Positions 581 to 61,795 of a stretch of DNA of 64,000 bases are shown here, in pieces. The position numbers and the translations under genes were made by a program. Every line of letters starts with the position of its first letter. Position 1 is the stretch's first letter. The stretch is from a virus (taxonomy: Duplodnaviria; Caudoviricetes). The stretch is taken from IMG/VR virus record IMGVR_UViG_2654587976_000001, positions 64,871-128,870 of that record. One strand, 5' to 3'. The notes beneath the pieces are model-generated. The model had not been told where the DNA came from and searched no databases. It saw nothing but the letters and a program-made list of their open reading frames with translations.

Positions 581-614
581 TTAAAACTACGATTTTAAAG
601 GGGGAGGATGACTT

Positions 615-842
615 ATGGCAGCCAAAATGATAACTGTCTGGTACAAATACGATGAGAGAGGCGGTAAAACCCAACTGAATCATATTGAAGATGGATGGGC
701 GCACGGAGATTATCCAAAGCCTATATATCCGTCATTCACAAATCAAGAAGCATGGAAGAAAAGTGATTGGGAGAGGAAACATGCTTATTTAGATGAACAC
801 TATCAAGTATTGAGCGTTCCACCAGCGAATTGGATTAAATAA
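615..842 (+). CDS. Hypothetical phage protein
   Basis: 75-aa ORF with strong GGAGG RBS. Confidence 0.75.
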   Translation: MAAKMITVWYKYDERGGKTQLNHIEDGWAHGDYPKPIYPSFTNQEAWKKSDWERKHAYLDEHYQVLSVPPANWIK

Positions 843-1065
843 TGAATTTAATAATGTTCACGGCAAGTATAAAGGCGGATGTTCCAAAGAAGATATATCC
901 ATAGCTCTTTTTTTTCTTTGAAAGTAATTCCAGCCCGACCATGATAAAAAGAACTGCAACTAATACCTGAAGAGAAATCAACAGGAATCCACTTTGATTA
1001 AACAGAGAATACACGGCTAGTAACAACGCCATAAATGAAATGAGAATTTTTATAGCTTTTAGCAT
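835..1065 (-). CDS. Small 3-TM membrane protein
   Basis: Hydrophobic 76-aa ORF, AGGAG RBS on minus strand. Confidence 0.7.
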   Translation of the reverse strand: MLKAIKILISFMALLLAVYSLFNQSGFLLISLQVLVAVLFIMVGLELLSKKKKSYGYIFFGTSAFILAVNIIKFII

Positions 1066-1171
1066 GCAAACACTCCTAAGGTAATTTGGTTAACCTTATC
1101 ACGTTGCAGACTTTTTTTGCAGAGGAAAAGGGATCAAGAACAAGCATTATTTTATAGGGGGAGACGAATAA

Positions 1172-1396
1172 ATGATCAAGGTTTATACAAGAGGTCATAA
1201 GATACCAGAAAAGATTAAGTCCTGCATCTCTGAATGGAATTATTGGTCTTGGATTGTTGCATCAAATAGTGAGAAGGGTAATAAAAGTGCAAAGCGGCTT
1301 ATTGAAAAGATTGAATCGGATCCAGACAAAATTGCGGAATATAAAACTGAAGACGGAATTGAAGTATATGTAAGCTACATGGATCCAGTGAAATAA
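1172..1396 (+). CDS. Hypothetical protein
   Basis: 74-aa ORF with RBS. Confidence 0.7.
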   Translation: MIKVYTRGHKIPEKIKSCISEWNYWSWIVASNSEKGNKSAKRLIEKIESDPDKIAEYKTEDGIEVYVSYMDPVK

Positions 1397-1410
1397 AAAA
1401 GAGCATTAAA

Positions 1411-1593
1411 CTAAATGCTCTTCTTCATACCACACCTACGACACTCACGTAAAAACACACCACTTTTCACTGAACTCTTGAACAAAGCATAATCACAGTT
1501 GTCACAGCGGCCATATTTAACATCGGGATACTCCTTATAATCATAAACAACAGTTACATCGTACCCGTTAGTCTCAAAATCTTTCTCTTCCAT
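1411..1593 (-). CDS. Small zinc-ribbon protein
   Basis: Two CxxC motifs; GGTGA RBS. Confidence 0.7.
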   Translation of the reverse strand: MEEKDFETNGYDVTVVYDYKEYPDVKYGRCDNCDYALFKSSVKSGVFLRECRRCGMKKSI

Positions 1594-1663
1594 TAAATTT
1601 CACCTACACAAAGTATTTAACACTACTATAATACCAGACGATGTATATAAGGAGGGGTTTTAT

Positions 1664-1920
1664 TTGATTGGAATAGCATATTTCTTAATACTCTGGCTGG
1701 GTATTGGCTTTCTGACAGGATTTAAGGCCTTATTCGTTGATCAGGTTTATGATGAAGAGTTTAAGCAGGAACTGATTGATTCATTTTCACCAGGTATGGA
1801 GCAGAATATGATTGAACTGTTCTTTAAGAATAAAATAAAATAAATATCATGGTGTTTTACATATTAATTGGATTGCTGCCACTGGCCATAAAAATTGCTG
1901 GTCTGCTGAAGAGGAGTTAG
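1664..1920 (+). pseudogene. yopE: YopE-like membrane protein, frameshifted by one extra ATAAA unit
   Basis: TTG start after AAGGAGG; stops at KNKIK*; removing 5 nt at 1830-1844 restores an 83-aa protein ending ...LLPLAIKIAGLLKRS*. Confidence 0.75.
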
Positions 1921-1922
1921 CT

Positions 1923-2138
1923 ATGCCGGTTATCGATACCTTTTTTGTTATTCAATTTGAAAATGATGATTACTTCAAGTCATTTAAAGTAGATGGAAGT
2001 GGTTATAAGACATCTAAGGGGCTTCATAGCGCTTCTAAGTTCACTACAATGTCAGAAGCCTTAGCGATCGCAAATGAGCTACATATGGAGTTTAAAGCCA
2101 CTTCTGCCATAAGGCAAATTGAAGTTATTACTAGGTGA
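1923..2138 (+). CDS. yopF: YopF-like protein
   Basis: 71 aa, recalled similarity and synteny. Confidence 0.7.
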   Translation: MPVIDTFFVIQFENDDYFKSFKVDGSGYKTSKGLHSASKFTTMSEALAIANELHMEFKATSAIRQIEVITR

Positions 2139-2149
2139 GGAGTGTTCAG

Positions 2150-3295: not shown

Positions 3296-3706
3296 ATGAA
3301 TTGGGTATCTTACCCCTCTATTTTACACTTTGCAAATGATGGTATTACAGTAACCTTTCCAGACCTTCCTGGGTGTGTAACCTGTGGATCGAATGACACA
3401 GAGGCAATTAGCATGGCAAAAGAAGCTTTAGGGCTTCATTTATATGGGTTAGAAATGGACGGAGAGAAGTATCCTGGCCCTTCACCGTTTTCGGAAATTA
3501 AGACAGCGGAAAATGAAGTTGTGTGCTTGATTGATATACCTATGCATGCATTCCGCGATGAATATAGACGTAAATCAGTCAAGAAAACATTAACTATTCC
3601 TGCGTGGTTGAATGAAGTGGCTGAAGAAAAGAACATTAATTTTTCTCAGGTGCTGCAGGATGCATTAAAAGATAAACTCGGACTAAATATCTTTAAGGCA
3701 CAATAA
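3296..3706 (+). CDS. hicB: HicB-family antitoxin with no adjacent hicA
   Basis: V-x-FPDLPGCVT-x-G...EA..MAKEAL N-domain and C-terminal KKTLTIPAWL RHH-like region. Confidence 0.88.
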   Translation: MNWVSYPSILHFANDGITVTFPDLPGCVTCGSNDTEAISMAKEALGLHLYGLEMDGEKYPGPSPFSEIKTAENEVVCLIDIPMHAFRDEYRRKSVKKTLTIPAWLNEVAEEKNINFSQVLQDALKDKLGLNIFKAQ

Positions 3707-3776
3707 GAATCCTTATTGTGCCGGTTTACATAAAATACGAATTTTAAACAGATAAGTATTCCTTAAAAAATAATTA

Positions 3777-3826
3777 GCATAAAAATAAAATAAATACTTG
3801 TAATTCTGACAACTCTAATGTATATT
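3777..3826 (+). promoter_or_regulatory. SigA promoter of aimR with upstream TAAAAATAAAATA element
   Basis: TTGTAA 3798-3803, 17 nt, TG-TATATT 3821-3826. Confidence 0.65.
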
Positions 3827-3867
3827 ATAAACAAGGGAACATTAGTTGGGAAGGGGTGGAGTAACCA

Positions 3868-5007
3868 ATGAATCTTAAGCAGATGATTAAGAATGAATGT
3901 GAAAAAGACAACCAGCTCGCAGCGAAACTCTCAAAAATAGCAGGGTACGAAAAGGTTAATGGTTTTTACAAATTCATCAACACCCCAGAGAAAGAAATGG
4001 ACAACTTAGGCGGTTTAATTAATATTGTTAAAAGCTTGTTTCCTGATAATGAGGAGCAGCTTCTAAGTGATTACTTCTTATCACTGGATCCCAACAAAAA
4101 ATGCGCTAGACAATCTGTTGAATACTCCGATATCAATCAATGGGATTCATTAACAGACAAGATTATTTTAAATTTATGCCACTCAAAAAACACAACAAGT
4201 CAAGAATGGGGTAACATCTACAACATACATAGAAAGCTATATAAAAACGAAATCTCAATACCAGAAGCAATAAGAGAATGTGGGAGATGTAAAGCTCCAG
4301 AAATGTCATTTTTTTCAGATGCAATGCTGATGTATAAATACTTGAATATTGGTGAGTTCGGATTGATGAAAAGCACCTTAACACTTTTAGATTTTAAAAG
4401 CTTACCAGAAGGATTTATAAAAGATTCGTACAAAAGTAGAGTGTCAATGTTAAAAGCGAATATAAGCTTAAACGAAAACAATTTAATCGAAGCAAGGAAA
4501 CATTCAAATATTGCAATAATGCAGTCCAATGTGAACCGAATATGTTTCTTTGCACATCTGACAATAGGTAATACCCTAATTTTCGAAAATTATGAAGAAG
4601 CTATGCTGGCGTATGTTGAGGCAAAGAAGTATGTTCTGAATGATACTCATGAAGAAATGCTAAATGGCGCTCTTTGCTTCTTAGCTAATGTATGGAACAA
4701 GGAAAATCTATGGGTTAACTATGAATCAAATGAAATCAAATATCAACAGCTAAGGGCTTTTTATTACATAAAAAGTAATAATCTCGACAAGGCTAACGAA
4801 TTATTAGAAAGCTTATCAAAAAGAGATCAAGATGAAAATGAATTAGGATTTTATTTTTATTATAAAGGTTTAATATCGAGGCAAAAATCTGATTTTTTTA
4901 AATCAATAACATATTTTAAAGAATCAGATGATAAATATTTTATCCAATTGGCAATAATAGAACTCGAAAAATTAGGCTGTGACCCGGAGCTGCTAAATTT
5001 AATTTAG
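3868..5007 (+). CDS. aimR: Arbitrium receptor AimR (RRNPP family, HTH plus TPR)
   Basis: 379 aa; AimR-like N-terminus (KLSKIAGYEKVNGFYKF); directly upstream of the SAIRGA peptide gene. Confidence 0.97.
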   Translation: MNLKQMIKNECEKDNQLAAKLSKIAGYEKVNGFYKFINTPEKEMDNLGGLINIVKSLFPDNEEQLLSDYFLSLDPNKKCARQSVEYSDINQWDSLTDKIILNLCHSKNTTSQEWGNIYNIHRKLYKNEISIPEAIRECGRCKAPEMSFFSDAMLMYKYLNIGEFGLMKSTLTLLDFKSLPEGFIKDSYKSRVSMLKANISLNENNLIEARKHSNIAIMQSNVNRICFFAHLTIGNTLIFENYEEAMLAYVEAKKYVLNDTHEEMLNGALCFLANVWNKENLWVNYESNEIKYQQLRAFYYIKSNNLDKANELLESLSKRDQDENELGFYFYYKGLISRQKSDFFKSITYFKESDDKYFIQLAIIELEKLGCDPELLNLI

Positions 5008-5036
5008 AATTTAGTACTTGAAAGGAGGTGAATTTA

Positions 5037-5168
5037 ATGAAAAAAATTATTTTCGGTACAGCCATTTTAGCATCATTAGCAATTTCATTCATTGCAGGTC
5101 AACATTCAGTTAATACGGCATCAGCTTCTGATGAGATCTCTGTAGCAAGTGCAATTCGGGGAGCTTAA
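5037..5168 (+). CDS. aimP: Arbitrium pre-pro-peptide AimP, mature signal SAIRGA (not in ORF track)
   Basis: AAAGGAGGTG RBS; MKKIIFGTAILASLAISFIAGQHSVNTASASDEISVASAIRGA*. Confidence 0.98.
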   Translation: MKKIIFGTAILASLAISFIAGQHSVNTASASDEISVASAIRGA

Positions 5169-5200
5169 TAATACAACAGGATACTACATAATCAATGGTT

Positions 5201-5234
5201 AGACGTTTGATCCAGTGGATCAGGCGTCTTTTCT
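5201..5234 (+). terminator. Intrinsic terminator after aimP
   Basis: AGACGTTTGATCC-AGT-GGATCAGGCGTCT hairpin followed by a T-run. Confidence 0.85.
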
Positions 5235-5246
5235 AATTTTAAGAGA

Positions 5247-5283
5247 ATGTTCCAGAAATTCATAATATAAAAAACAAGAACAT
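5247..5283. promoter_or_regulatory. AimR operator
   Basis: ATGTTC-N25-GAACAT: 6-bp inverted repeats 25 bp apart, between the terminator and the aimX RBS. Confidence 0.9.
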
Positions 5284-5295
5284 GGAGGAATTAAA

Positions 5296-5451
5296 ATGAA
5301 AAAGCATTTCGGACAATCACTTTCTTATGAGGATATGGCTAAGGGATACATGGAAATGGGAGACCTTAACTTAGAAATTTCCCAGGAAGATAATCATCTT
5401 GAAAATGAAGCAGAAATGGTTAGATCAAAATATAAAGCAAAGGTATCCTAA
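5296..5451 (+). CDS. aimX: AimX, 51-aa MazE-like protein (not in ORF track)
   Basis: GGAGG RBS; MKKHFGQSLSYEDMAKGYMEMGDLNLEISQEDNHLENEAE... resembles the Bacillus MazE C-terminal helix. Confidence 0.93.
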   Translation: MKKHFGQSLSYEDMAKGYMEMGDLNLEISQEDNHLENEAEMVRSKYKAKVS

Positions 5452-5514
5452 TGAAGATTAAAGTCAAATCAGCAGACATTTTAACACATACATAGGGGAT
5501 GTGTTATTTGTCTT

Positions 5515-5564
5515 GAATAAAAATAAAATAAATTGTTGCATATTATTCTAGCAACATATATAAT
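5515..5564 (+). promoter_or_regulatory. SigA promoter of the sro operon with TAAAAATAAAATA element
   Basis: TTGCAT 5536-5541, 17 nt, TATAAT 5559-5564. Confidence 0.75.
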
Positions 5565-5600
5565 GAAGTTACAAGATGAACGTTGTTGGGAGATGAAACA

Positions 5601-5813
5601 ATGGAAACAACCAGTGCCACTCAAAAGGAAGAGTTGAAGATTACATCATTAAGACAATATCAATACATAAAACAACTAAAGAACTTCACACGAGTCAATC
5701 TCCACCTAGAGGATCCAGATGTGTTTACACCTAATAATGTAACTACAATGAGAAAAAACCATAAAGAATACAACCTCATTAAAGAACAAAAAAATTCTAT
5801 AAAATGTATTTAA
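5601..5813 (+). CDS. yopM: YopM/SroA-like small protein
   Basis: First ORF after aimX; METTSATQ... start preferred; synteny. Confidence 0.6.
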   Translation: METTSATQKEELKITSLRQYQYIKQLKNFTRVNLHLEDPDVFTPNNVTTMRKNHKEYNLIKEQKNSIKCI

Positions 5814-5827
5814 GGAGTAAAAATAAA

Positions 5828-6058
5828 ATGAATAATAAATATTATACAGAAGAAAACAAGGCTAAAGTTTGGAAAAAGCATATGATCGTTTTAAAGTTTC
5901 TAGAGCAGCCTGAGATAGCAGTAGCTTATAATGAGTTCCTACGAAGAGAAGCGACAAGTGATGAATGGGTTGGGTTCGAAGAGGAGCTTTATGAGGAATT
6001 GACGGGGATGCCAATTATAAACGTCTGTAAGGACGAGAGGGTAAATGTCCTAAACTGA
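5828..6058 (+). CDS. SroB-position protein (phi3T_93-like candidate)
   Basis: AAGGAG RBS before MNNKYY; position in the sro operon. Confidence 0.6.
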   Translation: MNNKYYTEENKAKVWKKHMIVLKFLEQPEIAVAYNEFLRREATSDEWVGFEEELYEELTGMPIINVCKDERVNVLN

Positions 6059-6096
6059 ATTTTATTATAGGATAAAAATAAATTAGGTGTGATAAA

Positions 6097-6261
6097 ATGA
6101 ATACAGACATCTTAATTAACGCTCTTAAAGAATACGACATGTTAAAGCAAATGGAAATCTGTAACGCCAATATAATGCTGCTGAGTAATATTCAAGGTGA
6201 GAATGAATGGATTGTTGCGTGGAAAGAATTTGATCAATACTTAATGAAAAAAATGATATGA
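6097..6261 (+). CDS. 54-aa SroC-position protein (not in ORF track)
   Basis: AGGTG RBS; MNTDILINALKEYDML...; fills the gap before yopP. Confidence 0.65.
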   Translation: MNTDILINALKEYDMLKQMEICNANIMLLSNIQGENEWIVAWKEFDQYLMKKMI

Positions 6262-6270
6262 GGTGTCATT

Positions 6271-7329
6271 ATGGAAGCTCAAAAGAAAGCGTCAACACTA
6301 AGGGATTATTCAATATACAATAACATAAATAGGTGGTTTGATGAATTAGATTTAAGAAACAGGGATCGAGAAACTGGAGAAATTGAAAAGTCTAATACTA
6401 GAGCCACGTATGAAAGGCATATAAGAGAGTTTTTCAACCACTATGCTGCCAAGGATATTGAATATTTAACTGAGAGTGACCTGGCGATTAAGAAGAGTGA
6501 CCTGTATGATTATCGAACCCATTTGGCTAAAAATAAAAGCAACTCCAATTCAACAATTAACAATAAGATTGCCGCACTGAAAAGTATGATTAAGTACCTT
6601 GAATCTGAACATGAGTGTGATGCATCTGTATTTAATTTTAGACCTCTTCCAACAGAAAAGAACCCAGCAGGCTCTTTTGAAGGAATATCTGAAGCTGATG
6701 AATTTGCTGAGGTAGCGTATGTTACTGAGCGTCAGAACAGATTAATGAAAAAGATGTTTATTTTGTTTAGTGCACGTACTGGTGGGCGTAAATCAGAGGT
6801 GCTTAGAGTTGGGTGGGATGATATTACTTATTCAGAAAAGCACCAATGCTATCTCGTCAACTTTAAAAAAACTAAGCAAAAAAAGGCTAGACCAGTTGGG
6901 ATTTCCACTGCTTTTTATGAAGAGTTGTTGCTGTTAAAGCAAGAGTATGTGGAACATGAGCTTTTATTTCATAAGTTAACAGTTGATTCAATACAGGATA
7001 TGTGGAATCGCGTATGTAGAGTTATGGGCATTCCCAAAGAAAGAAAGATAACTCCGCATAGTTTACGCAATACTGCAACAAACTTTTCTTACAGCGTTAA
7101 TGGTGATATTAAAAAAGTGGCAGCGTTCTCTGGCCACAGTAATATCAATACTTTAAATGACCATTATTTAGTCAATGAAAGGGATTATTCTCAAGATCCA
7201 GGGGTTTTGGTTGATCAAAAAGAAGACATGTCCTTTTTAGAAGATGTTACCTTAGAGCAATATAAAGAATTCTTTTTAAAATCAGACATGTATATACAGA
7301 ATAAACTTAAAATGTTTTTGAACAAGTGA
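6271..7329 (+). CDS. yopP: YopP/SroD tyrosine-recombinase-family protein
   Basis: TGGR, KTK, HSLR, SGH and DHY motifs; synteny. Confidence 0.9.
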   Translation: MEAQKKASTLRDYSIYNNINRWFDELDLRNRDRETGEIEKSNTRATYERHIREFFNHYAAKDIEYLTESDLAIKKSDLYDYRTHLAKNKSNSNSTINNKIAALKSMIKYLESEHECDASVFNFRPLPTEKNPAGSFEGISEADEFAEVAYVTERQNRLMKKMFILFSARTGGRKSEVLRVGWDDITYSEKHQCYLVNFKKTKQKKARPVGISTAFYEELLLLKQEYVEHELLFHKLTVDSIQDMWNRVCRVMGIPKERKITPHSLRNTATNFSYSVNGDIKKVAAFSGHSNINTLNDHYLVNERDYSQDPGVLVDQKEDMSFLEDVTLEQYKEFFLKSDMYIQNKLKMFLNK

Positions 7330-7405
7330 TACAAATAATCATATAAAAGCTTTACTTGCTTATGAAAATAATGATAAATTTAATATGATTATGTGAGGTG
7401 ATAAT

Positions 7406-8755
7406 GTGTCTGAAGTTTTGTTGACAACGGATAAACTTTATAAGTTAAAAACTGAAATAGAGGAAAATCTTAATGATATTAAAAATGATCCCAATATGGT
7501 GAAGGAATTAAAAGCCACAATGGCGGACAAATACAAGGCACTCCCTGGTTATATCCAAGAAATTTTAAATAATAATGATAACAACGTACAGCGTTTAAAC
7601 GAAAAAGAAGTGTACATTGTTTCAAAAGAGATGTATTCAATTCTTGGGACGCAAGCCTTAGATCCGTCAAATTATTTTCCAACCAGATTGGCAAAAGAGC
7701 TTGAAGGTGGGAGAGTATTCGCCGGTGAAGAAGTAGTTAAGCTCCCATACAAGTTTAAAAATGTGATTAAAATTAAAGAGGATAACTATGTCACTTCCAT
7801 TACTGCCAAAGAACTGAGTGAGTTATATAATAGCTCCATCCTGCAGTACAATTACAACACTCAGCGTGAAGGAAAGTACATTAAGGGCAGCCTTATCCCT
7901 GTACCTAAAACAAATCCTAAATCAGTCGATGAGATCAAAGAATTGTTTATTAAAGGCGATTTAATTGTGTCAATGTTAACTTTTAACGCTCGTCTTGGAA
8001 CTTCTGATGGTGATGAAGAAGTTGAATATGATCCAAGCGATCAAACCCTCACTGTAACACGAGGAACCTTATTAGATGCTCTAGATGGGTACCATCGAAT
8101 TTCAGGTATTGTTAAGGCCATTGCTGAAGTCCCTGAATTAGATCAACCATTCATTTTAAATGTGCTCAATTATGATGAAGAAAAGGCTAAGGTTCACTTT
8201 GCTCAAATGAATACAATAAACCCAGTTGAAAAATCCAGAATTGAAGAATTAGGACAAAAACGGTATTCTTCAACCGTGGTCGAGCAACTGAAATTTAAAA
8301 GTGAACTTAAAAATAAAATAAGCCCACAAAGTGACATTGGTCTTGATAGCAATTTCCTTGTGACATATTACACTTTATCCGAAGCTATAGACGATGCATT
8401 TGAGTTGAAATCTCGAAAAGATGCATTAAAAATTTCAAAATACCTGGTTGACTTTTTTGATAACCTTTTTTATGCTTTCCCAGATGAATTTCTTGAAGAT
8501 GATTTATCGTCCATTAGAAAGCAATCATATATTAATCATAACGTAATGTTTTACGGTTATGTTTATTTGGCCAAGAAGATGAAGGAAAACAATATAGAAC
8601 TAAACAAGCTTGAAAGTATCCTTAATACAATTGACTTTAGTAAAAGCGGAAGAGTGTTTGAAGAATTAGGAAGACAAAATAATGAGATTCAACTAAAGAA
8701 TGTTATGAAGAAGAAACTTAAGCGAATATTTTATGATGAAATTGCTGTTGTTTAA
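7406..8755 (+). CDS. yopQ: YopQ/SroE DndB/ParB-like protein
   Basis: LDGYHR (DGQHR-type) motif; synteny. Confidence 0.85.
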   Translation: MSEVLLTTDKLYKLKTEIEENLNDIKNDPNMVKELKATMADKYKALPGYIQEILNNNDNNVQRLNEKEVYIVSKEMYSILGTQALDPSNYFPTRLAKELEGGRVFAGEEVVKLPYKFKNVIKIKEDNYVTSITAKELSELYNSSILQYNYNTQREGKYIKGSLIPVPKTNPKSVDEIKELFIKGDLIVSMLTFNARLGTSDGDEEVEYDPSDQTLTVTRGTLLDALDGYHRISGIVKAIAEVPELDQPFILNVLNYDEEKAKVHFAQMNTINPVEKSRIEELGQKRYSSTVVEQLKFKSELKNKISPQSDIGLDSNFLVTYYTLSEAIDDAFELKSRKDALKISKYLVDFFDNLFYAFPDEFLEDDLSSIRKQSYINHNVMFYGYVYLAKKMKENNIELNKLESILNTIDFSKSGRVFEELGRQNNEIQLKNVMKKKLKRIFYDEIAVV

Positions 8756-8774
8756 AGCCTAAAGGAGAATTAAT

Positions 8775-9758
8775 ATGAGTGAAATGTATAATGCTGAATT
8801 GAAGGAAAAGTTTTTAGAGAAATACGAAAGTGAAGCAACAAGAAACCATTATTGGCTAAGGCTAAGGGATTTCTCAGCTACAGAAAAAATACTTCAAAAA
8901 GACATATTTAATTTTTCTTTGGAAGAGCTGCGTACGTTATTTTTCGATTTGGATAGCAAATCTATAGACTCATTAAGAGGAGCACGAGCTGTAATTGGAC
9001 AATACACAACCTGGGCAATGGAAAATGGCTTGGCAAACAGTAACATCAACAAAGTGTATCAGATACAGGATGGTGACTTAAAGCAGTTTATAGATAAAAA
9101 CAAAAAAACACTATTCACTAATAAAGAAGTAGAAGAGTATGTTGATTTTATGATTAATTATCAGGATAAGGCCATGATACAGGCTATTTATGAAGGTATA
9201 GATGGTTATCAGCATTCAGAGTTACTGAATTTAACAGGTGACGATTTACTCGATGATAACAAGGTAAAGCTAGTAGATGATAAACATGGTGTAAGAATAA
9301 TTACTGTAAGCGATAAATGTTATGAGTTACTTAAGCGTGCTAATGACCAAAGAACATATCATCTTAGCAATGGTTCGCCAGATAGTAGCCTTAAAAACAA
9401 ATTTGCCACATTAGTTAAAAGCGAAAATATTTTTAGGCTAAAATATAAGAGCTCTAATCAGAGTATGAAAGCTGACAAATTTTTAGTTCATCGTTCTTTT
9501 AGTCAGTTTCAAAAATTTTTAGAAGAACCCTTCTTTACACCTAAAAATCTTATCAATTCAGGAAAGCTCAACATGGCGTATGCGATATATAAAGAGAAGG
9601 GTGAATTAAAAGTACCTGATTATAAACAAATAACTCGACAATATGGGTTCTTGAATGAAGACGCGGAGTTTAATTCACAAACACTGAGGAAAGTAGTGAA
9701 TATGGAGAACTTAGAAAAATATTGTATCAAGTCTGAAGTAATTGAGACTAATTCTTAA
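8775..9758 (+). CDS. yopR: YopR/MrpR/SroF master repressor (degenerate recombinase fold)
   Basis: [12 protein letters not shown]-terminus; lacks the catalytic R and HxxR; synteny. Confidence 0.88.
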
Positions 9759-9781
9759 TCCCTGTTACAGGGATTAACTTT
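9755..9781 (+). terminator. Terminator after yopR
   Basis: TTAATCCCTG-TTA-CAGGGATTAA perfect hairpin. Confidence 0.7.
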
Positions 9782-9978
9782 ACATAACTTTCAGAGTAAA
9801 AATAAAACAAATGTGAGTTAACTCGTGGTATTTTTAAAAAAATATCAGGATTTTGTTCATATTTTTCAGAATTCGACAAAGTTAGACAGAGACAAATTTG
9901 TACATATGCAGTAAAATAGTTCTATACCCTAAAAAGGGTACAAGGAGGTTCGCTAGGCCAAACTCCCTAGCGATAAAG

Positions 9979-10200
9979 TCAATGTTTGATTTTCCATTCA
10001 TAGAGCTCTTCAATCGAACAGTTAAGGGCAATAGCAATGATTTTCGCTGTTTTTATATTCATAGAAGGTCTAAAGCCGTTTGCATAGTCACTTAATCTTT
10101 GCGTACTAATGCCTGTTCGCTTTGAAAGTTCTCCTAAGGACATTCCTCTACTTTCAAGGAGAATGGATATCAAACATTGTCCGATTTCAACCTCAAGCAT
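9979..10200 (-). CDS. yopS: YopS Xre-family HTH regulator
   Basis: HTH pattern LGELSKRTGISTQRLSDYANG; AGGAGG RBS before MLEVEIG. Confidence 0.85.
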   Translation of the reverse strand: MLEVEIGQCLISILLESRGMSLGELSKRTGISTQRLSDYANGFRPSMNIKTAKIIAIALNCSIEELYEWKIKH

Positions 10201-10277
10201 CGGACAACCTCCTGTTATAGTATTGCTTATCATACTATATCAATTCTTTCCAAGTTTTTAAATGAAAGAAAAAAGAT

Positions 10278-10336
10278 TTGCCACTAACTAGGTAAAAGGT
10301 TATAATTAAGTCAACAAAAAAGGGAACGTAAGTTCG
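10278..10336 (+). promoter_or_regulatory. SigA promoter with LexA (Cheo) box
   Basis: TTGCCA-17-TATAAT; GAAC-GTAA-GTTC at 10324-10335. Confidence 0.8.
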
Positions 10337-10365
10337 GTTAATTACTACCAGAGAGAGGGAAACGT

Positions 10366-10665
10366 ATGTCAGAAAAGGATTATTTCATTCAAGGGGAGCT
10401 GTGCATTCCTTTTTTCGGCAGAATAAAAGCCAAGAATGAAGAGGAAGCACTATTGTTCGCATATCAATCAATTAAAAAGAAATTAAGAAATAAAACAGGG
10501 AAAATGGGGTTTCTTCAAAAAGATCAAGAAAAATATGAGGCACTATTTGATGTAGATATCATGTGTACAGAGGATGCTGAATTAACAACATCTTATGCCG
10601 AAGAGATAGACGATTCGTTTGAAAATGAAGGCTATAAATCTTCACAATTGTTATCATCGAAGTAA
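10366..10665 (+). CDS. Hypothetical protein, probably SOS-induced
   Basis: 99-aa ORF downstream of the LexA box. Confidence 0.7.
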   Translation: MSEKDYFIQGELCIPFFGRIKAKNEEEALLFAYQSIKKKLRNKTGKMGFLQKDQEKYEALFDVDIMCTEDAELTTSYAEEIDDSFENEGYKSSQLLSSK

Positions 10666-10739
10666 AAATACATACACATCTTGTCAGTCATCATGAGACA
10701 TAAAAAATTGGTGACTTTTTAGTCAGACTGGAGCATACA

Positions 10740-10985
10740 ATGGATTTTAATCTTGAAATTGACTTGAAAGACATTATGAGATCAGTTTCCATGAGTGTTG
10801 GTTCTAAGAACATCCAAAGTGGAGAGTACTACATAGACATTATTTTTAAAAACAATGGGGATTGTTTGAGGATTAGAATGGATCATGCTTCAGTTTTAGA
10901 ATTTAGAGACAAAATAAATGAAACTCTTTGGAAACTAGACGGCATGAAGACGTTTATGAAGACAGCAGCTTTACAGTATGAGTAA
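10740..10985 (+). CDS. Hypothetical protein
   Basis: 81-aa ORF with GGAG RBS. Confidence 0.65.
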   Translation: MDFNLEIDLKDIMRSVSMSVGSKNIQSGEYYIDIIFKNNGDCLRIRMDHASVLEFRDKINETLWKLDGMKTFMKTAALQYE

Positions 10986-11008
10986 AGCTGATTTTTTTGA
11001 AATTTTTA

Positions 11009-11058
11009 AGAGTAAAAATAAAATAATTGTTTACAACATTTGGTTGAGATTATATAAT
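11009..11058 (+). promoter_or_regulatory. SigA promoter with TAAAAATAAAATA element
   Basis: TTTACA 11030-11035, 17 nt, TATAAT 11053-11058. Confidence 0.75.
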
Positions 11059-11093
11059 CGAATTAGAATAAGGAAAGGAGATAGCTTTAATTA

Positions 11094-11318
11094 TTGATTA
11101 ATGAACCAACTAACAATCAAATAAGAAGTATGGTTTTAAGGAAATATGCAAAGCTCTTAGCATCATGTGAAAGATCTTTGCGCAGCATAGAGAACAATGA
11201 AATCAGAATGGCAATAGGAGACCTGGACTTTGTTAAAGACAATTTAGAGGAAATACAATACATACTTCGTGATGTTGTGAATCAGCATGAATATATTAAG
11301 GATAAAAATAAAATGTAA
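11094..11318 (+). CDS. Hypothetical protein
   Basis: 74-aa ORF with RBS. Confidence 0.65.
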   Translation: MINEPTNNQIRSMVLRKYAKLLASCERSLRSIENNEIRMAIGDLDFVKDNLEEIQYILRDVVNQHEYIKDKNKM

Positions 11319-11350
11319 GTTTTATAGAGAATTAAAAAGGAGGAAACGTA

Positions 11351-11767
11351 ATGAAAGAAATTAAAGTTCGGTACGTTTTTCGGCATAAGAAGACCAATGA
11401 AATTGTCTTGCATTATTACACCTTGAGCGAAATTGAATTTTTCGGAGAGACGATCTACACAGATAAAGAAGATTACGAGTTGGTCAGTCGGGATCTGTGC
11501 ACTTGTCTTAAAGACAGCAATGGCAAAAACATATATGCAGGAGATTATATAAAAATTACATACGACACTGCCTTTTCTAAAGAGCCATTCTATATCGGGG
11601 TGGTGAAATATTTGGAAAACGAAGATTACCCAGCTTTTGATTTAAGACCTTGGGTTGATTTAGACATGAATGCTATAAGCTGGTTAAAAAGTGAATCAGA
11701 TCCTACCGTAAAAAAATACGAAGTCATAGGCAATGTGTATCAGAATCCAGAATTGTTAGGAGTGTAG
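11351..11767 (+). CDS. YopX-family protein
   Basis: LKDSNGKNIYAGD and EVIGNVYQNPELL motifs. Confidence 0.85.
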   Translation: MKEIKVRYVFRHKKTNEIVLHYYTLSEIEFFGETIYTDKEDYELVSRDLCTCLKDSNGKNIYAGDYIKITYDTAFSKEPFYIGVVKYLENEDYPAFDLRPWVDLDMNAISWLKSESDPTVKKYEVIGNVYQNPELLGV

Positions 11768-11771
11768 GTGA

Positions 11772-12146
11772 ATGATCACAGCATACAGAGTTTGGGACGG
11801 CGAGCAGATGCATTATTGGGATGATGAGGGGATAAGCCTGAATATTGAAGATGGAAATTGGTATTTATACCGCAAAGGAAAATTCATCACAAGCAATAAA
11901 ACAGCCTGCGCGGCTCTAATGTGGGGCATAGGATCGAAGGATCAGAACGAAAAAATGATCTATGACAAGGATTACATTTTGGATCATAACACTGATACGA
12001 AGTTCGTAGTTAAGTATGACAACAATCAAGCTGGTTTTTATCTTGATATAGGTATCGGAAATGGCAGTGGTGCTTTTATGGTAGGCGATCTTGAAATCAT
12101 CGGCGACGTTTATCGAAGTTCTAAGTTATTGGAGGGCATAGAGTGA
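11772..12146 (+). CDS. YopX-family protein
   Basis: AYRVWDG, KDQNEKMIYDKD and EIIGDVY motifs. Confidence 0.8.
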   Translation: MITAYRVWDGEQMHYWDDEGISLNIEDGNWYLYRKGKFITSNKTACAALMWGIGSKDQNEKMIYDKDYILDHNTDTKFVVKYDNNQAGFYLDIGIGNGSGAFMVGDLEIIGDVYRSSKLLEGIE

Positions 12147-12355
12147 TGGCATTTCATAAAGAAGTGGTTGAGACTATATACAAAACAGTTGTTATTTGCG
12201 ATAAATGCGACAAAGAGAAGGTTTTAAACATAGGGGAGCCGTTATCGTGGGAGGGGCATATGAATGGTGCTTTGTACCACGATTACACATTCACAGAGAA
12301 GGGGAACGGGTTCGAAACTCTATGCCCCGCATGTCAGAAGGAGGGCGCGGAGTGA
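12143..12355 (+). CDS. Zinc-finger-like hypothetical protein
   Basis: CDKC and CPAC motifs. Confidence 0.65.
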   Translation: MMAFHKEVVETIYKTVVICDKCDKEKVLNIGEPLSWEGHMNGALYHDYTFTEKGNGFETLCPACQKEGAE

Positions 12356-12417
12356 GTAAATTCAAAGGGCACACATGTGAACAATAGATCGGTAAAGGTG
12401 ATCGAGGAGGTAATAGA

Positions 12418-12696
12418 ATGACAATCAATTTGAAAGTGAAACAAGAGAAGCGTAAAGGGTTATCAATTAATGATATCCAAGATGGATTTTTCATTTTAAG
12501 AAATGACGATGTTTGGATTGTGAAAATGGATGTTACAAATAGAAATAAGATACATTTAATCGATTTAGAGACGTTCCATGTTAAAACTGTATCAACAAAG
12601 AACGAGTTGAAAAGTTTGTTTGAAAATTGGAACCGAATCAAGATATTAAGTCCGAAACAGGTGAATTTAAATATCGGGTTCCAATGGAAAGAGTAA
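12418..12696 (+). CDS. Hypothetical phage protein
   Basis: 92-aa ORF with GAGGAGG RBS. Confidence 0.7.
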   Translation: MTINLKVKQEKRKGLSINDIQDGFFILRNDDVWIVKMDVTNRNKIHLIDLETFHVKTVSTKNELKSLFENWNRIKILSPKQVNLNIGFQWKE

Positions 12697-12709
12697 AGGA
12701 GGAGGCTGA

Positions 12710-13060
12710 GTGATGGACAAAATAGATAACAACGAATTGAAATTCCGAATGATTACTACGGATGGAAAATCATTTCCGGTTAATTCTGCACCTATTGAAG
12801 GCTGGCAAAATGATATTTGGAAGACGTTTGATGAACAGAAACGGGTTTTCGATGCAGAGACCAAAAAGGCACTTGCACACTGCGGAGTGCCTTTGTGAGA
12901 AGCAATTAGACGGGCTATATTAGCCAAAGATAAGGACGACAACACTGTTCTGACAATAGACAAACGACCGGTTTTAATTTTGTATAAACCTGAATTTTTA
13001 TATTCGCAAGGAAAAGCAGTACGGAGATTCAAACGACTTTATGAGGAGGATGCAGAGTGA
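12710..13060 (+). pseudogene. Hypothetical gene with an in-frame premature TGA
   Basis: Frame stays open for 53 codons after TGA 12896-12898 and ends in a GTGA overlap with the next start. Confidence 0.6.
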
Positions 13061-13239
13061 GTAGGTTAAATGGATTGATTACAGATAAATACGGTGATGC
13101 ATTGTATAGAAGTGGTTTTTGTATAACCATTGAAGAGAATTCACACTCTAGGATGGTTACGGCAGATTTCACATTGAACAGAAGTCACCTTCCGTTTTTA
13201 AAAGAAATTGTAAAAGACTTGGAGGAAGAAGCGGAGTGA
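13057..13239 (+). CDS. Hypothetical protein
   Basis: 60-aa ORF with GAGGAGG RBS. Confidence 0.6.
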   Translation: MSRLNGLITDKYGDALYRSGFCITIEENSHSRMVTADFTLNRSHLPFLKEIVKDLEEEAE

Positions 13240-13357
13240 TCTGAGGTTACAGTCTAGATAAAAGATGCATTTTAAAGTGTTTCAAGGGGAGTGATGAAAT
13301 TGGAAAAAGAATGATTTGAAAAAAGCACTTGAATACAAATTAACGGGAGGTAAAACG

Positions 13358-13615
13358 ATGAAAATTATTAACGTTTACGGAGACGGAGATTGTGCAGCGT
13401 TGTTTATTGAGGATGAGCATGGGATTGAACGTGCCTATAAAGAAGCGGTTACAAACGGTGGAAAAGTAAGCATTGAAGGGGACGATCATCAACAGGTTTA
13501 CGTTGAGGTTCTGGAATTTGGCGCTGTTGACGAAAAATTTATCGCTTATATTCGAGATAAACAAGATGACGACATGGCTAAGGACAGCAATTTTTTCGTT
13601 ATTGATGAGTCGTAA
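13358..13615 (+). CDS. Hypothetical protein
   Basis: GGGAGG RBS before MKIINVYG. Confidence 0.7.
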   Translation: MKIINVYGDGDCAALFIEDEHGIERAYKEAVTNGGKVSIEGDDHQQVYVEVLEFGAVDEKFIAYIRDKQDDDMAKDSNFFVIDES

Positions 13616-52286: not shown

Positions 52287-52405
52287 TAAATATTACCACC
52301 TTTTCGTATATTGAGAATTTTGAGACAAGTATATTATACCAGTAATCAGGAAAAAGGACTAAATAAAAGAAGACTTTTATCTAAACAATAAGGAGGAAAA
52401 AGACG

Positions 52406-55044: not shown

Positions 55045-55047
55045 TTA

Positions 55048-57216: not shown

Positions 57217-57591
57217 GTGAATGAAAAACTAACGCAAGATCAACTCGAAGCAATCCGGAAGCGTTCGACACAAGCGACAGGCGGTAAATGGGTCGCAGAG
57301 GCAAACGACGGACTGATGGATCACCGAACTAACTATCGTGTCTTCTCGGATATTGAAACGGAATATAGCGAGGTTACATTCCTCATTCATAAATTGGAGA
57401 ACAAAGAGGACGCGGACTTCATCGCAAACGCGCATCAAGATATTCCTAAGCTTCTTGATCACATTACTTTTCTAAACGAAGTAATATCGAGCTGCCGATG
57501 CACTGAATGTGGTGATGAATTAGGGGGAAATTGGGCAACTAACAGCGGAGTACCGTTTTGCAATTGCTGTGCTGGATTTAATTCTTTATGA
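57217..57591 (+). CDS. Hypothetical phage protein
   Basis: LEAIRKR...ATGGKW...DADFIANAHQDIPKLL; C-terminal Cys pairs. Confidence 0.7.
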   Translation: MNEKLTQDQLEAIRKRSTQATGGKWVAEANDGLMDHRTNYRVFSDIETEYSEVTFLIHKLENKEDADFIANAHQDIPKLLDHITFLNEVISSCRCTECGDELGGNWATNSGVPFCNCCAGFNSL

Positions 57592-57623
57592 AATCTGTAT
57601 TTTAAAGAGAAGGATGGTGAGCT

Positions 57624-58978: not shown

Positions 58979-58979
58979 T

Positions 58980-59807
58980 ATGAAAATCGATTATGTTTCA
59001 GATCTTCATATTAATCACTGGATACCTTGGAACAATAACCAAATCAAATGGGAAAAGCGAACAAGGGAGATTATTAGAAGGTTAATATCGAATGGAAATG
59101 GTGAGGTATTAATAATTGCCGGTGATTTTACTGAGTGGAATCAACAGACACTGTGGGTACTTGATGAAGTAGCAAAGCAGTATGAAAAGGTTTACTTCAC
59201 ATATGGTAATCATGATCTTTATTTACTCAGTAAAAATCAGCAACGAAAATATTCCGATTCATTGGGAAGAGTGAAAGATTTAATTCAGAAGGCAGCAGAC
59301 ATCAATAATGTCACTCCATTAATAAAGTCTACGGATACATACAAAGGAAAAGTCTTTGCTGGAGATGTCATGTGGTATCTTCCAAAAGGAAATGAAGGAT
59401 GGGATTTCTTCAAAGGTGTCTCTAATGATTCAAACTATATCAGTCTTAATGGATACAGCAAAGAAGATGGAGTACGAGCAATGTGGAAAGAATCAATGGG
59501 ATGGTATGACACTCTTGAAAATGCACAAGTTGATGTATTTGTCTCACATGTTCCACCTGTTCACAATCCTTATTCTCCATTTGAGCCTAATACATGCTAC
59601 ATGGTTGATGTCCCGTTCATTAACGCAAAACATTGGGTTTGTGGCCATGATCATTTACAAGCTGAGTTTGACAAAGATGGAACGAGCTTTCACATGAACT
59701 GTATTGGATATCCGTATGACTATGATAATTATCCGAGTGTCAATGTGATACCTGGTGAAGAAGTAGATTCATATAAAACGTTTGAGCTTAAGACATTTGA
59801 GATTTAG
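58980..59807 (+). CDS. yotB: Calcineurin-like metallophosphoesterase
   Basis: SDLH, AGD, GNHD and GHDH motifs. Confidence 0.9.
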
Positions 59808-59849
59808 ATTCAGTTAAAATTCTAATTTTATTGAAAAGGGGAGATTAAA

Positions 59850-60209
59850 TTGAATAAGAGAGTAAAGAAGAAGATTCGAAATAGAGTTGAATCATGGATT
59901 ATTTATAAGAATCCTAATGGGTCATATAATTCATTGGGTGTAAACAAATTTGGAGAAGTACCCTCCCATGCACGCCCTTTGCATCCTGAATATGAAACAT
60001 TAGGAGAGGTCTTAAATTCATTCCCTAAAGGATTTAACTTTCCTTTGGTTGAGTTGACAAAAGAAGAAGAAAACATGTTGTTCTTTGATCATCATCCTAC
60101 AGAGTGCGGCTGCTGGCACACAGGAGATAGAGATACGTGGGGTATTTGGGGACAGAGGTATTTATTGAAAAAAGTATCGGATGGGTGTTGCGAATACGTC
60201 TCAAAATAA
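59850..60209 (+). CDS. Hypothetical protein
   Basis: 119-aa ORF bracketed by junction palindromes. Confidence 0.65.
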   Translation: MNKRVKKKIRNRVESWIIYKNPNGSYNSLGVNKFGEVPSHARPLHPEYETLGEVLNSFPKGFNFPLVELTKEEENMLFFDHHPTECGCWHTGDRDTWGIWGQRYLLKKVSDGCCEYVSK

Positions 60210-60250
60210 AATATTTATTTTCTGATTTTATCCAGAGAGGGGAAATGATA

Positions 60251-60490
60251 ATGGATTACACAAAACTGTTAGAAGAAAAGTACCCAATTAGCATTATTCA
60301 GTATGTAAGACAGAGAGAAGGTTTAGATAAGGAAGATGTCTCCATGGATAAAGAAATTCTAGAAATGACGAACTCAGAAGTGTTTAGAGATGTCCTAGCT
60401 TGGAATGGCCTTCTTGGAGGATGGGATTATACAATTAAAGATTGGATTAAGAGCATTTATGGAATCGATCTTGATGACTTTGAAAAGTGA
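60251..60490 (+). CDS. Hypothetical protein (YotJ-like)
   Basis: GAGGGG RBS before MDYTKLL. Confidence 0.65.
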   Translation: MDYTKLLEEKYPISIIQYVRQREGLDKEDVSMDKEILEMTNSEVFRDVLAWNGLLGGWDYTIKDWIKSIYGIDLDDFEK

Positions 60491-60655
60491 AACCATGCCA
60501 TATGGACAATGCGATAAATGTTATCAATATGGACATTTGCAAAGACACTCATACGGAATCTTTTATTGGTATTTTTGCAAAACATGCTATTTAACAGTAA
60601 CAACAAAAGTTTCTTCTTACTTTGGGACTTCATAAACTAGAAAGGAGAGGGTTAA

Positions 60656-60901
60656 GTGGATAATAAAAAGAGGGGCGTAATTCACTTATACAAATATGAC
60701 TTTGAAGATGGTAAATATGCTCTAAATATAGGCTGTGATGGGTCTGCCAACTTAGACATAAAGGCATTTAGAATAATGTTAAATCAATGCGTAGGACACC
60801 CCAATATGACACTATTTGATGATAAGTCTAAAAGAGATGAGAGGTATAAAAAAGCAAAAAGAATGCTTTTAGATGCAGGGTACACAATAGAAGAAAAATA
60901 G
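60656..60901 (+). CDS. Hypothetical protein
   Basis: 81-aa ORF with RBS. Confidence 0.6.
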   Translation: MDNKKRGVIHLYKYDFEDGKYALNIGCDGSANLDIKAFRIMLNQCVGHPNMTLFDDKSKRDERYKKAKRMLLDAGYTIEEK

Positions 60902-61329
60902 ACAAATCGTTTCTAATTTTATACGGAAGAGAGGGATTGATACTATGATTGGGAAAGCATTATACAATAATTTGTGGTTTGAAGTTGCAAATATCAACTT
61001 TGACACAGGGCATATCATAATTAAAAACGACAGTGAAAACTCGTTGGGTTTGAGAATAGGTAAAACACTAACACTTGACCTTGATTACGTCGATGATGTA
61101 AAAATTGGACTTCTGCTTTAAATGAATAAAATGTTGATTTCAATTAGAAAGGTGGAAACAGGTTGATTGTTGCAGCATGGATATTGTTCGTTGCATTTGG
61201 GTTTGTGTTGTTAGCAAGAATGGATGCCCAAGGGGATATTAAATTTGCAGTGTATATTGGTGTAATTAAATTTATTTCAGTATTTATTGTTGCAATTGCA
61301 GCAGGAGTGATTTGGGGAGGGTTATTTCA

Positions 61330-61761
61330 ATGAAGACTATCAAATTATATGAACTTGTATTAGAAGGCAAAAAACCGATTATTAAATTTAACGATAATGT
61401 ATATGAATGGATTGAAGAATCAGTCGATCCCATGATGATGGGGAAAATAGTTGGGGCATCAATTGAGCATGATGAGATTAAATTTTTATTAGATTTGAAT
61501 CCTTTTGAAGCATACAATCGAAGCGTTGCGCGGCATGATTGGAGAGATGATGAAGGGAATTGTGTTTTAACATGGTTTGACACTTCTTTTTATCCGAAAA
61601 ACGGAATTGAAGCTATTTACTTACCAATTAATGAAAGAACAGAAATTGCGTTTGATTTTACAGAAGAAGATTCTTTATTAAATGAATATGCAAAAGTCCC
61701 TCCAGAAATTTCATATGTTGAATGGCTAGAAAATGAAGTTAAGCAATTAAGATCTAAATAA
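61330..61761 (+). CDS. Hypothetical protein (YotI-like)
   Basis: GGAGG RBS before MKTIKLYE. Confidence 0.7.
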   Translation: MKTIKLYELVLEGKKPIIKFNDNVYEWIEESVDPMMMGKIVGASIEHDEIKFLLDLNPFEAYNRSVARHDWRDDEGNCVLTWFDTSFYPKNGIEAIYLPINERTEIAFDFTEEDSLLNEYAKVPPEISYVEWLENEVKQLRSK

Positions 61762-61795
61762 AATCGGTCATTTATTTAGAATGAAAATAAAATAA

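Follow-up and report, generated by a model that had tools for sequence, protein, structure and literature searches.

A recurrent 28-bp palindrome with slot-specific 6-bp centres at the boundaries of exchanged gene blocks in SPbeta-like phages

The main finding of this study is that a short palindrome, TAAAA-N6-TTTTA, which recurs along a 64,000-nucleotide stretch of a Bacillus phage genome, lies at joints where phages of the SPbeta family appear to have exchanged gene modules. This stretch, hereafter the window, is the right half (64871-128870) of the 128,870-bp single-contig virus record IMGVR_UViG_2654587976_000001. Sequence comparison with relatives indicates that there are about 35 fixed slots, each with its own 6-bp centre, which are shared across phages while the gene blocks between them differ. 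What is new is that these slot-specific centres keep a constant order across seven phages with differing neighbour genes; we have found no description of the motif in the literature. We consider it very probable that the sites are both exchange joints and recognition sites for a protein. The fuller statement, in which the exchange would also be catalysed by a phage Xer-type tyrosine recombinase, falls in our judgement just short of being probable.

The source genome is itself a mosaic. All of the matches of the window in a megablast search (21/21) are Bacillus phages of the genus Spbetavirus, and the DNA of the replication block is about 81% identical to SPBc2 and phi3T. Any one listed phage record matches 13-47% of positions 1-24000 and 9-30% of positions 36000-60000, and because so little of these two parts is matched, the genome is strongly mosaic relative to its relatives. 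The window holds 16 exact copies of TAAAA-N6-TTTTA. When the spacer of TAAAA-Nk-TTTTA is varied from k=0 to k=14, the counts are 2, 1, 0, 0, 1, 0, 16, 1, 0, 1, 1, 3, 3, 1 and 2, and when the window is shuffled 300 times with its dinucleotides preserved, 0.85 ± 0.93 copies arise at k=6, with a maximum of 4. Over the whole genome there are 23 exact copies at k=6, 18 of which lie outside or at the very end of a coding sequence (CDS) as defined by an ad hoc gene caller (86% coding). In the intergenic DNA of the 128,870-bp genome, k=6 yields 17 copies and the other spacings from k=2 to k=11 yield 0-2, whereas 0.46 ± 0.71 are expected at k=6 when each intergenic segment is shuffled separately. An initial annotation, made from the letters of this stretch, had proposed an excess at k=6 as a check on the motif, and the excess is found both in the window and in intergenic DNA. 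Its 13 perfect copies are all where it placed them, and three further exact copies had been missed, one intergenic at 11309 and two inside CDS at 28590 and 35756.

Inexact copies as a class are not enriched: at k=6 there are 37 copies with at most one mismatch (21 inexact), compared with 18-33 at other spacings. For this reason we built a weight matrix of 28 positions from 62 distinct-spacer intergenic sites of the seven genomes and used a cut-off score of at least 14. The matrix finds 35 such sites in the whole genome, against 1-5 with half-matrices at wrong spacings, and in the window 24 sites plus four borderline ones. By this measure, 21 of the 25 sites listed in the initial annotation score at least 14, two (13981 and 43563) are borderline, and two fail, namely 14314 (two core mismatches, score 3.1) and 60207 (10.6). 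What had been described as symmetric TTTCA/TGAAA variants are single mismatches, five of the form TAAAA..TTTCA and one TGAAA..TTTTA.

The palindrome is the invariant core of a larger site. TAAAA-N6-TTTTA lies within an imperfect palindrome of about 28 bp with the consensus TCTAAATAAAA-N6-TTTTATTTAGA, that is, 11+6+11 bp. The logo, drawn from 62-63 sites oriented by gene direction, one per distinct spacer and leaving out those within CDS and those flanked by divergent or convergent genes, reads T(-5) C/T T A R A, TAAAA, T n n n n A, TTTTA, W W n A R A(22). The conserved positions are -5 to 6 and 11 to 22, the 6-bp gap is fixed and k=6 alone is enriched, while the four inner positions of the centre are uninformative. 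None of the 82 spacers is palindromic and none is repeated within one genome, both of which chance alone would predict. Most slots begin directly past a stop codon and end directly ahead of the next ribosome-binding site, which at many sites follows 5-10 nt downstream. In 11 of 62 slots the left-arm TAA doubles as the stop codon of the gene upstream; in the window, the overlap with a stop codon reported earlier matches an open reading frame (ORF) end at all eight named places.

Such a position suggests an element acting in RNA, that is, an intercistronic hairpin that would terminate or process transcripts or control translation, and the core indeed ends 15-24 nt ahead of the next start codon in 19/62 slots. 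In the SPBc2 record two copies also lie within stem_loop features annotated by the depositors (2622-2651 and 116406-116431), and none is annotated as a repeat. However, no compensatory covariation is seen between the arms: 0/9 mirror pairs are complementary beyond column composition (permutation p 0.17-0.96, n=62). This argues for two like half-sites on duplex DNA, recognised by a dimer, and not for a hairpin. Furthermore, TTTCA, the commonest variant, would give an A-C mismatch in the sense RNA, a 5-bp A-U stem alone is too weak, and the sites are symmetric and found between divergent genes too. An association with terminators, to which several sites lying past terminator-like hairpins had pointed, was dropped, as the upstream folding energy equals that of control junctions (-6.2 vs -6.0 kcal/mol; -8 or lower in 4/22 vs 19/76). 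We therefore regard an RNA or single-strand role as scarcely credible.

The motif is real and family-wide. SPBc2 carries 34 exact copies, and phi3T, BUCT083, SPbetaL2, SPR and Goe13 carry 30-37 each, compared with 0-2 in a backward-read control; the seven Spbetavirus genomes range from 23 to 37 copies at k=6, while any other spacing gives 0-6. Five host chromosomes are not enriched, with forward counts of 105, 65, 55, 34 and 32 against 111, 97, 76, 41 and 36 in the control, so that the excess resides in the phage elements. The same core is kept in distant elements whose YopP homologues, which are considered below, are only 30-38% identical. Among elements with yopP, yopQ and yopR in a row, there are 4 copies in Bacillus sp. 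T33-2, 5 in Virgibacillus and 11 in B. pseudomycoides per 21 kb. In the B. pseudomycoides element, which belongs to the B. cereus group and has yopP-yopQ-yopR homologues of 30-41% identity, the first 140 kb of a 142-kb contig hold 28 exact copies at k=6 (27 intergenic) against 0-7 at other spacings, mostly within the first 75 kb. Its outer arms are unlike the SPbeta consensus (the right arm is about CATAAA); a symmetric change of both outer arms was considered and was not upheld after 27 sites were aligned. A search of viral_contigs returned neither of the distant YopP homologues P0006 and P0009.

This distribution bears on the idea that the sites serve a host factor, either the host Xer pair CodV/RipX or another host DNA-binding protein, which we think improbable. 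The lack of enrichment in the five host chromosomes argues against it, as does the conservation of the core in phages of the B. subtilis group, the B. cereus group and Virgibacillus. We also count against it the arms of Bsdif, which we take to resemble the motif arms weakly. In its favour, the 11+6+11 layout is the same as that of Bsdif, and mobile elements are described as exploiting host Xer in the available text of the same source (PMC5357621).

The evidence that the sites are joints comes from two comparisons at different scales. The genome was aligned by blastn with six whole relatives, and wherever two genes adjoin, the junction was scored as colinear or as a break. Every informative junction with a site is broken (22/22), compared with 59/105 of those without a site (Fisher p 1.7e-5; at least one informative relative). 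The result is similar for window junctions only (15/15 vs 41/72) and for gaps of at least 25 nt only (22/22 vs 39/62). Counted as pairs of junction and relative, the sites show 66 breaks and 3 colinear cases, while junctions one to four steps off show 49-67% breaks, and thus the effect is local and not regional. At a finer scale, all 256 sites of the seven genomes were compared and pairs of sites were classed by their distal flanks. Where only the left flank is related (n=71), identity is 0.96-1.00 through the left arm to position 16, with 0.97 in the spacer and 0.94 in TTTTA, and drops to 0.3-0.4 past position 23. Where only the right flank is related (n=88), identity is about 0.3 up to position -6 and 0.93-1.00 from position 1, with 0.93 in the spacer. 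In a further 223 pairs the core is identical and both flanks are unrelated between the phages. The 16-bp core thus belongs to both adjoining blocks, which is the residue expected of crossing-over inside it. On these alignments, the core is a joint where modules are exchanged, with identity stopping at its edges whichever side is replaced. The suggestion of the initial annotation that the motif marks the boundaries of exchanged gene blocks therefore holds, as does the coincidence of breakpoints with the motif, and the exchange points fall inside the 16-bp core.

The 6-bp centre behaves differently from what had been proposed. Grouping by spacer gave 82 groups, of which we analysed the 39 that are present once each in at least three genomes. 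At least two left-flank types occur in 32 of these 39 slots and at least two right-flank types in 30, and both sides are invariant in 4. In 17/39 slots the same left type is combined with two right types and the same right type with two left types, and 3/39 pass a four-gamete test. The order of shared spacers is colinear in all comparisons, with 12/12 steps between the source genome and SPBc2 and from 19/19 to 27/27 in the others (Goe13 27/27). Since the spacer is kept when either flank is replaced and the order is fixed, it is an address of a genomic position and not a part of a cassette. The spacer is variable, as claimed earlier, in that it differs between slots, but it does not vary freely, being slot-specific and conserved between phages.

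These features separate the motif from integrons, to which it had been likened. In a strictly integron-like system the site would belong to the cassette, as attC does, and single genes would be excised as circles and re-inserted elsewhere. There are grounds for the comparison: the motif is an imperfect palindrome of the tyrosine-recombinase type that borders single promoterless genes, and some small genes are flanked by sites. The brackets 14631-15054, 15933-16370 and 38004-38825 stand, the bracket 43237-43563 is weak, and those that use 14314 or 60207 fail. A few pairs of sites also share one flank and the arm and differ in their spacers, with the junction at the arm/spacer border, and "integron integrase" (TIGR02249) is among the weak NCBIfam matches of the window's YopP homologue (32.5 bits, cut-off 265). 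However, the spacer stays with the slot whichever flank is replaced, the site does not travel with the gene, the conserved trait is the arm sequence and the slot order is invariant. The arms lack attC-type covariation or folded-strand features, and there is no attI-Pc integration platform. Nor does any segment between two sites prove to be simply present or absent with its outer flanks conserved, which gives 0 clean cassette insertions or deletions in the seven genomes; the gain and loss of single cassettes between sites, also proposed earlier, is therefore not borne out. The interpretation of the initial annotation is thus partly supported, for the exchange boundaries and the site geometry; an integron-like cassette system does not fit the comparisons, and in its strict form it is very improbable.

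If the exchange is enzymatic, a candidate enzyme is encoded within the window. The yopP/sroD homologue (6271-7329, + strand) is predicted to encode an Xer-like tyrosine recombinase (Pfam Phage_integrase, 4.2e-14, with a SAM-like N-domain) in which the residues R173, K202, H263, R266, H289 and Y299 are all present in the sequence. Among ten YopP homologues of 28-97% identity, five of the six catalytic residues do not vary, namely Tyr, Arg I, Lys and both His. The best NCBIfam matches are XerA/XerC/XerD and the integron integrase, all far below cut-off, and there is no match of the YopP sequence among Protein Data Bank (PDB) chains. An AlphaFold model (pLDDT 78.7, from a nine-row alignment) matches XerA (5hxy) and XerH-difH (5jjv/5jk0) best, with E about 2e-8 and TM about 0.4; Tn1549 Int, Cre and lambda Int rank next. 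Brady et al. 2021 (PMC8612738) note that YopP has a XerC-type domain and YopQ a ParB-type one, and the integration of SPbeta is attributed in that text to the serine recombinase SprA, which leaves YopP without an assigned substrate. Downstream lie the yopQ/sroE homologue (7406-8755, +), which is DndB/ParB-like (Pfam DndB, 5.8e-16) and an alternative candidate binder, and the mrpR/yopR/sroF homologue (8775-9758, +), the master repressor (Pfam MrpR_N_CB and MrpR_C_cat), which binds a different box. The closest protein relatives of the YopP homologue are labelled Bacillus velezensis (97%). A homologue 99% identical to the window's is found on a 133-kb contig titled Streptomyces sp. (NZ_JBHVTC010000023.1; 34% G+C over 21 kb), which probably represents the Bacillus phage studied here, or a near twin of it, within an assembly that is mislabelled or contaminated.

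The geometry of the motif also fits such an enzyme. In E. coli, B. subtilis and archaea, dif is described as a pair of 11-bp half-sites that flank a central region of 6 bp; for difH the left arm is given as AGTTATGAAAA, ending in GAAAA (PMC5357621, available text). The motif has likewise two partly symmetric arms of about 11 bp, a 6-bp centre and an A-tract at the inner end of the arm, so that the claim of tyrosine-recombinase site geometry holds. YopP resembles the Xer proteins in being, as modelled, a simple two-domain tyrosine recombinase whose best folds are XerA/XerH, and partner sites of the same slot share their central region, with 0.93-0.97 identity where one flank has been replaced. 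The differences are that there are about 35 motif sites per 130-kb genome against one dif per replicon, that every motif site has a different central region, that YopP is far below the Xer family cut-offs and that the presumed role is exchange between genomes and not dimer resolution.

We propose that YopP/SroD is the catalyst, as the most economical mechanism. The protein would bind the 28-bp site as a dimer and cut where the 6-bp centre meets the arms; strand exchange would be completed only between sites with identical centres. The partners would be the same slot in two co-resident SPbeta-like genomes, either a superinfecting phage and a prophage or two co-infecting phages. The outcome would be an ordered, in-register swapping of gene cassettes, like recombinase-mediated cassette exchange with heterospecific sites. 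Tyrosine recombinases require identical central regions to finish exchange, and this requirement would explain why the exchange is allelic and the gene order kept. Heterospecific lox/FRT sites are a man-made parallel: they have common arms and different spacers, only like sites recombine, and cassettes swap in register. The motif has common arms and differing spacers too; its pattern is natural, and its catalysis is putative.

The main rival explanation is that the palindrome is bound by a dimeric phage regulator, as an operator, a roadblock or a silencing site, and that exchange is a by-product of short homology. The 6-bp centre would then be neutral, the sites would be the only short identical islands (16-28 bp) amid unrelated intergenic DNA, and host or phage homologous recombination or annealing would make use of these islands. 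The candidates would be the ParB/DndB-like SroE (YopQ), SroD as a mere DNA binder, or an Xre-type helix-turn-helix (HTH) protein. We hold this explanation to be possible, if somewhat doubtful. The 5-N6-5 geometry suits it, as it also suits operators of HTH dimers such as the 434 and CRP sites. The position does not: most sites lie within strings of genes read in one direction, where a stop codon precedes them, a ribosome-binding site follows and no promoter is near, their position relative to known early promoters is not fixed, which is odd for an operator, and a half-site of 11-12 bp is long for a single HTH. Ordinary homologous crossovers do happen between these phages, but at the 223 core-only pairs a crossover would rest on 16-28 bp, and homology of this length is inefficient for RecA-type recombination. 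For MrpR itself, the ten ChAP-seq peaks given in the available text are all at SPBRE promoters (PMC10516654), a result that is silent on other proteins.

Repressor boxes offered a control for short conserved islands. At boxes more than 80 nt from the motif, one-sided breaks are seen in 31/120 informative pairs for the phi3T type with at most one mismatch, 8/45 for exact boxes and 8/41 for SPBRE, whereas motif sites show 172/255, which is 2.5-3.7 times the frequency at repressor boxes of similar length. The motif acts as a joint far more often than other short conserved islands. A general search for isolated shared 14-mers was dominated by chance matches in A+T-rich DNA.

Several observations weigh against catalysis by YopP, and some of them speak for the regulator. 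That repressor boxes lie at some breakpoints shows that no dedicated enzyme is needed for a short conserved island to act as a joint. The motif-bearing distant elements carry all three of yopP, yopQ and yopR, while three Paenibacillus/Saccharibacillus elements that have a YopP homologue (31-35%) without yopQ and yopR show no motif within 21 kb, and a search of the same type over these 21 kb gave no other enriched 6-spaced palindrome. The motif thus co-occurs with yopQ and yopR and not with yopP alone, and by this co-occurrence YopQ/SroE or MrpR fits the motif as well as YopP does. Arg II is replaced by Lys in SPBc2 YopP and in one other homologue, and SroD is reported in the literature as an "auxiliary repressor". 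Compared with the divergent source genome, the spacers are 0.85-0.93 identical and the adjoining homologous flank 0.88-0.96 (7-8 pairs), so that the conservation of the spacer is not above that of the neighbouring DNA. In a cruder test, alignment ends from BLAST fall within 20 nt of sites in 6.1% of cases against 5.5% for all gene boundaries; such ends fall at gene boundaries generally, and what distinguishes motif junctions is that they are hardly ever colinear. The six relatives are closely akin, hence pair counts are not independent events and the 39 slots are the safer unit. In laboratory hybrids of phi3Ts and SPbeta, the sole finely mapped crossover (a 40-bp interval) is without the motif, and the others lie inside stretches of parental identity of 1.4-18 kb, within which their position is not resolvable. 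Exchange by a recombinase rather than by short homology is put forward here as a candidate mechanism. The transcription of yopP, yopQ and yopR in lysogens, reported in the available text of bioRxiv 10.1101/2021.11.22.469490, would suit a regulator as well. In the same hybrids (W07-W10), fully identical parental blocks are bounded by motif sites, and one 1.4-kb identical block of the phi3Ts/SPbeta parents has motif sites 2 nt and 8 nt from its edges; several edges of the crossover intervals also fall on motif sites, which merely restates the block structure of the parents.

Other known elements of these and other phages differ from the motif. In T4-type phages, the PeSLs are described as promoter and terminator stem-loops that recombine by homology and can form mini-circles (PMC2839356, available text). 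Like the motif, they are short repeated intergenic elements among small non-essential genes, and indel and replacement differences map there. The motif lacks their promoter or hairpin signature, its arms form an invariant 5+5-bp palindrome, and its centre is unique to each slot, so that exchange appears allelic with the gene order kept. An identity of the motif with SPBRE, the operator of MrpR/YopR/SroF (PMC10516654), was ruled out, as the sequences are unrelated. We derived SPBRE as about ACAAATACAAAWAATATGTATA from SPBc2 regions upstream of nine of the ten genes named by ChAP-seq, and no match was seen upstream of yorM. Like the motif, SPBRE recurs between genes in these phages; its binding protein has a tyrosine-recombinase fold, and the element sometimes adjoins the motif. 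It differs in being located at promoters and bound by a monomer, with about 10 copies in SPBc2 against 34 of the motif. The phi3T SroF box is described as 26 bp, asymmetric and monomer-bound (bioRxiv 10.1101/2025.11.27.690993, available text). The genome studied here has 34 phi3T-type box matches with at most one mismatch and one SPBRE-like match, so that its repressor is of the phi3T type. Boxes of the AGAATAAAAATAAAAT type, the reverse complement of the phi3T SroF operator, lie at about 38843, 40737, 45786, 53242, 55048, 55138 and 61778 of the window; some of them directly follow a motif site (38825, 61759) or overlap one (41008). A YonO promoter was likewise ruled out, as the late operon is reported to have a single YonO start site (PMC5467207, available text). 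For a dimeric HTH operator, as noted above, the geometry fits; the position of the sites relative to promoters is inconsistent, and most sites have no promoter.

The individual sites of the window, for which no strand is assigned, illustrate these features. Site 582-597 has the exact core TAAAACTACGATTTTA, is intergenic, 1 nt past a stop codon and 17 nt from the next start (score 20.1). Site 3731-3746, also exact and intergenic, lies 5' of an aimR homologue and has a score of 25.2. Next come two exact cores with well-sampled slots: 11309-11324 (24.1), which overlaps the end of the upstream ORF and whose slot TGTAAG is found in 7/7 genomes, and 13259-13274 (22.8), slot GATGCA, whose spacer is shared by 5 genomes that show 4 types of left flank and 4 of right flank. 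Two proteins with a YopX domain (PF09643) are encoded in separate slots of this one genome, at 11351-11767 and 20001-20471. The borderline copy 13981-13996 (TAGAA..., 13.4) is within the range of the wrong-spacer controls. At 14631-14646 the exact core of slot AGACTG (21.8) is shared by 6 genomes with 4 left and 6 right flank types. Two sites with a TTTCA mismatch use their TAA as the upstream stop codon, 15054-15069 (18.0) and 16370-16385 (slot GATAGT, 15.8), and between them the exact core 15933-15948 (24.2) has divergent genes on both sides. Further exact cores are 19797-19812, within the last codons of ORF 19570-19815 (18.9), 20469-20484, slot ACGATA, in which TAA is again the stop codon (21.8), and 23332-23347 (22.4). 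The one-mismatch site 20663-20678 (TAATA, 14.8) was absent from the earlier list.

The replication block, 24.3-37 kb, had been said to carry no copies at its junctions. No strong junction site is present there, but a strong site lies within a CDS and a weak one is found at 25748. The strong site, 35756-35771, has an exact core inside a yorM-like CDS (19.7), with a counterpart at SPBc2 111029. There is no breakpoint at it because both flanks are conserved in relatives, and the flanks of the related slot GAGTCA are invariant. Beyond this block, site 38004-38019 (one mismatch, TAAAT; 18.1) has N6_N4_Mtase (Pfam) genes on either side. These two neighbouring N6/N4 DNA methylase genes (37242-38003 and 38042-38827; PF01555, E 2e-32 and 9e-31) have 38004 between them and 38825 after them. 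The latter site, 38825-38840, is exact, with slot TTTGTC in 7 genomes and a phi3T-type SroF box next to it (19.0). The exact core 41008-41023, slot TATTCC (22.9), is four-gamete positive, and 41923-41938, slot TTCAAT (20.6), is exact as well. Single TTTCA mismatches are found at 43237-43252 (slot GTTTTA, 19.3), 45054-45069 (slot TCACAG, 20.8) and 61127-61142 (slot TGTTGA, 16.8). The borderline copy 43563-43578 (TTAAA..., slot GGATGA, 13.5) corresponds to an exact site with the same spacer at SPBc2 118867. Site 52364-52379, an exact core, has divergent genes on both sides (22.3), and in 57589-57604 (TGAAA, slot TCTGTA, 18.6) the TGA is the stop codon. At the exact site 59815-59830, slot TTCTAA (22.8), the 7 genomes include every one of the four combinations of left types A/B with right types Y/Z, and 61759-61774 (one mismatch, ATTTA; slot TCGGTC; 22.0) is a near-perfect palindrome over 28 bp.

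Some observations on the record and on deposited reads may also be noted. The leftmost large gene of the genome (117-1277, minus strand, outside the window) is Rap-type phosphatase-like (RapH_N and TPR), and no integrase. In a run filed as RNA-Seq, window positions 3501-23500 are wholly within one 25-kb contig at a flat depth of about 173, which resembles DNA and not transcripts; in three raw-read RNA runs with the same species label, almost nothing of the phage is present.

In summary, we tentatively put forward the picture of a natural cassette-exchange system with about 35 dif-like sites, in which YopP/SroD would be expressed even from the prophage and only like-numbered sites would be recombined; taken as a whole, this picture is possible rather than probable. 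If it is true, related phages would reassort some 35 gene modules in a fixed order, with the genes undisrupted. SPbeta and phi3T are models for arbitrium signalling, lysogeny control and anti-defence genes, and much of their accessory load sits in gene strings punctuated by these sites. The modular theory of phage genomes is an old idea for which we know of no dedicated machinery so far, and if the sites are enzymatic they would provide a programmed mechanism for modular phage evolution. YopP/SroD, a conserved core gene product with a complete-looking active site, gains a candidate substrate. Even if exchange is a by-product of short homology, the slot map predicts where SPbeta-like hybrids can break, and the slots may serve as natural landing pads for engineering SPbeta-like phages.

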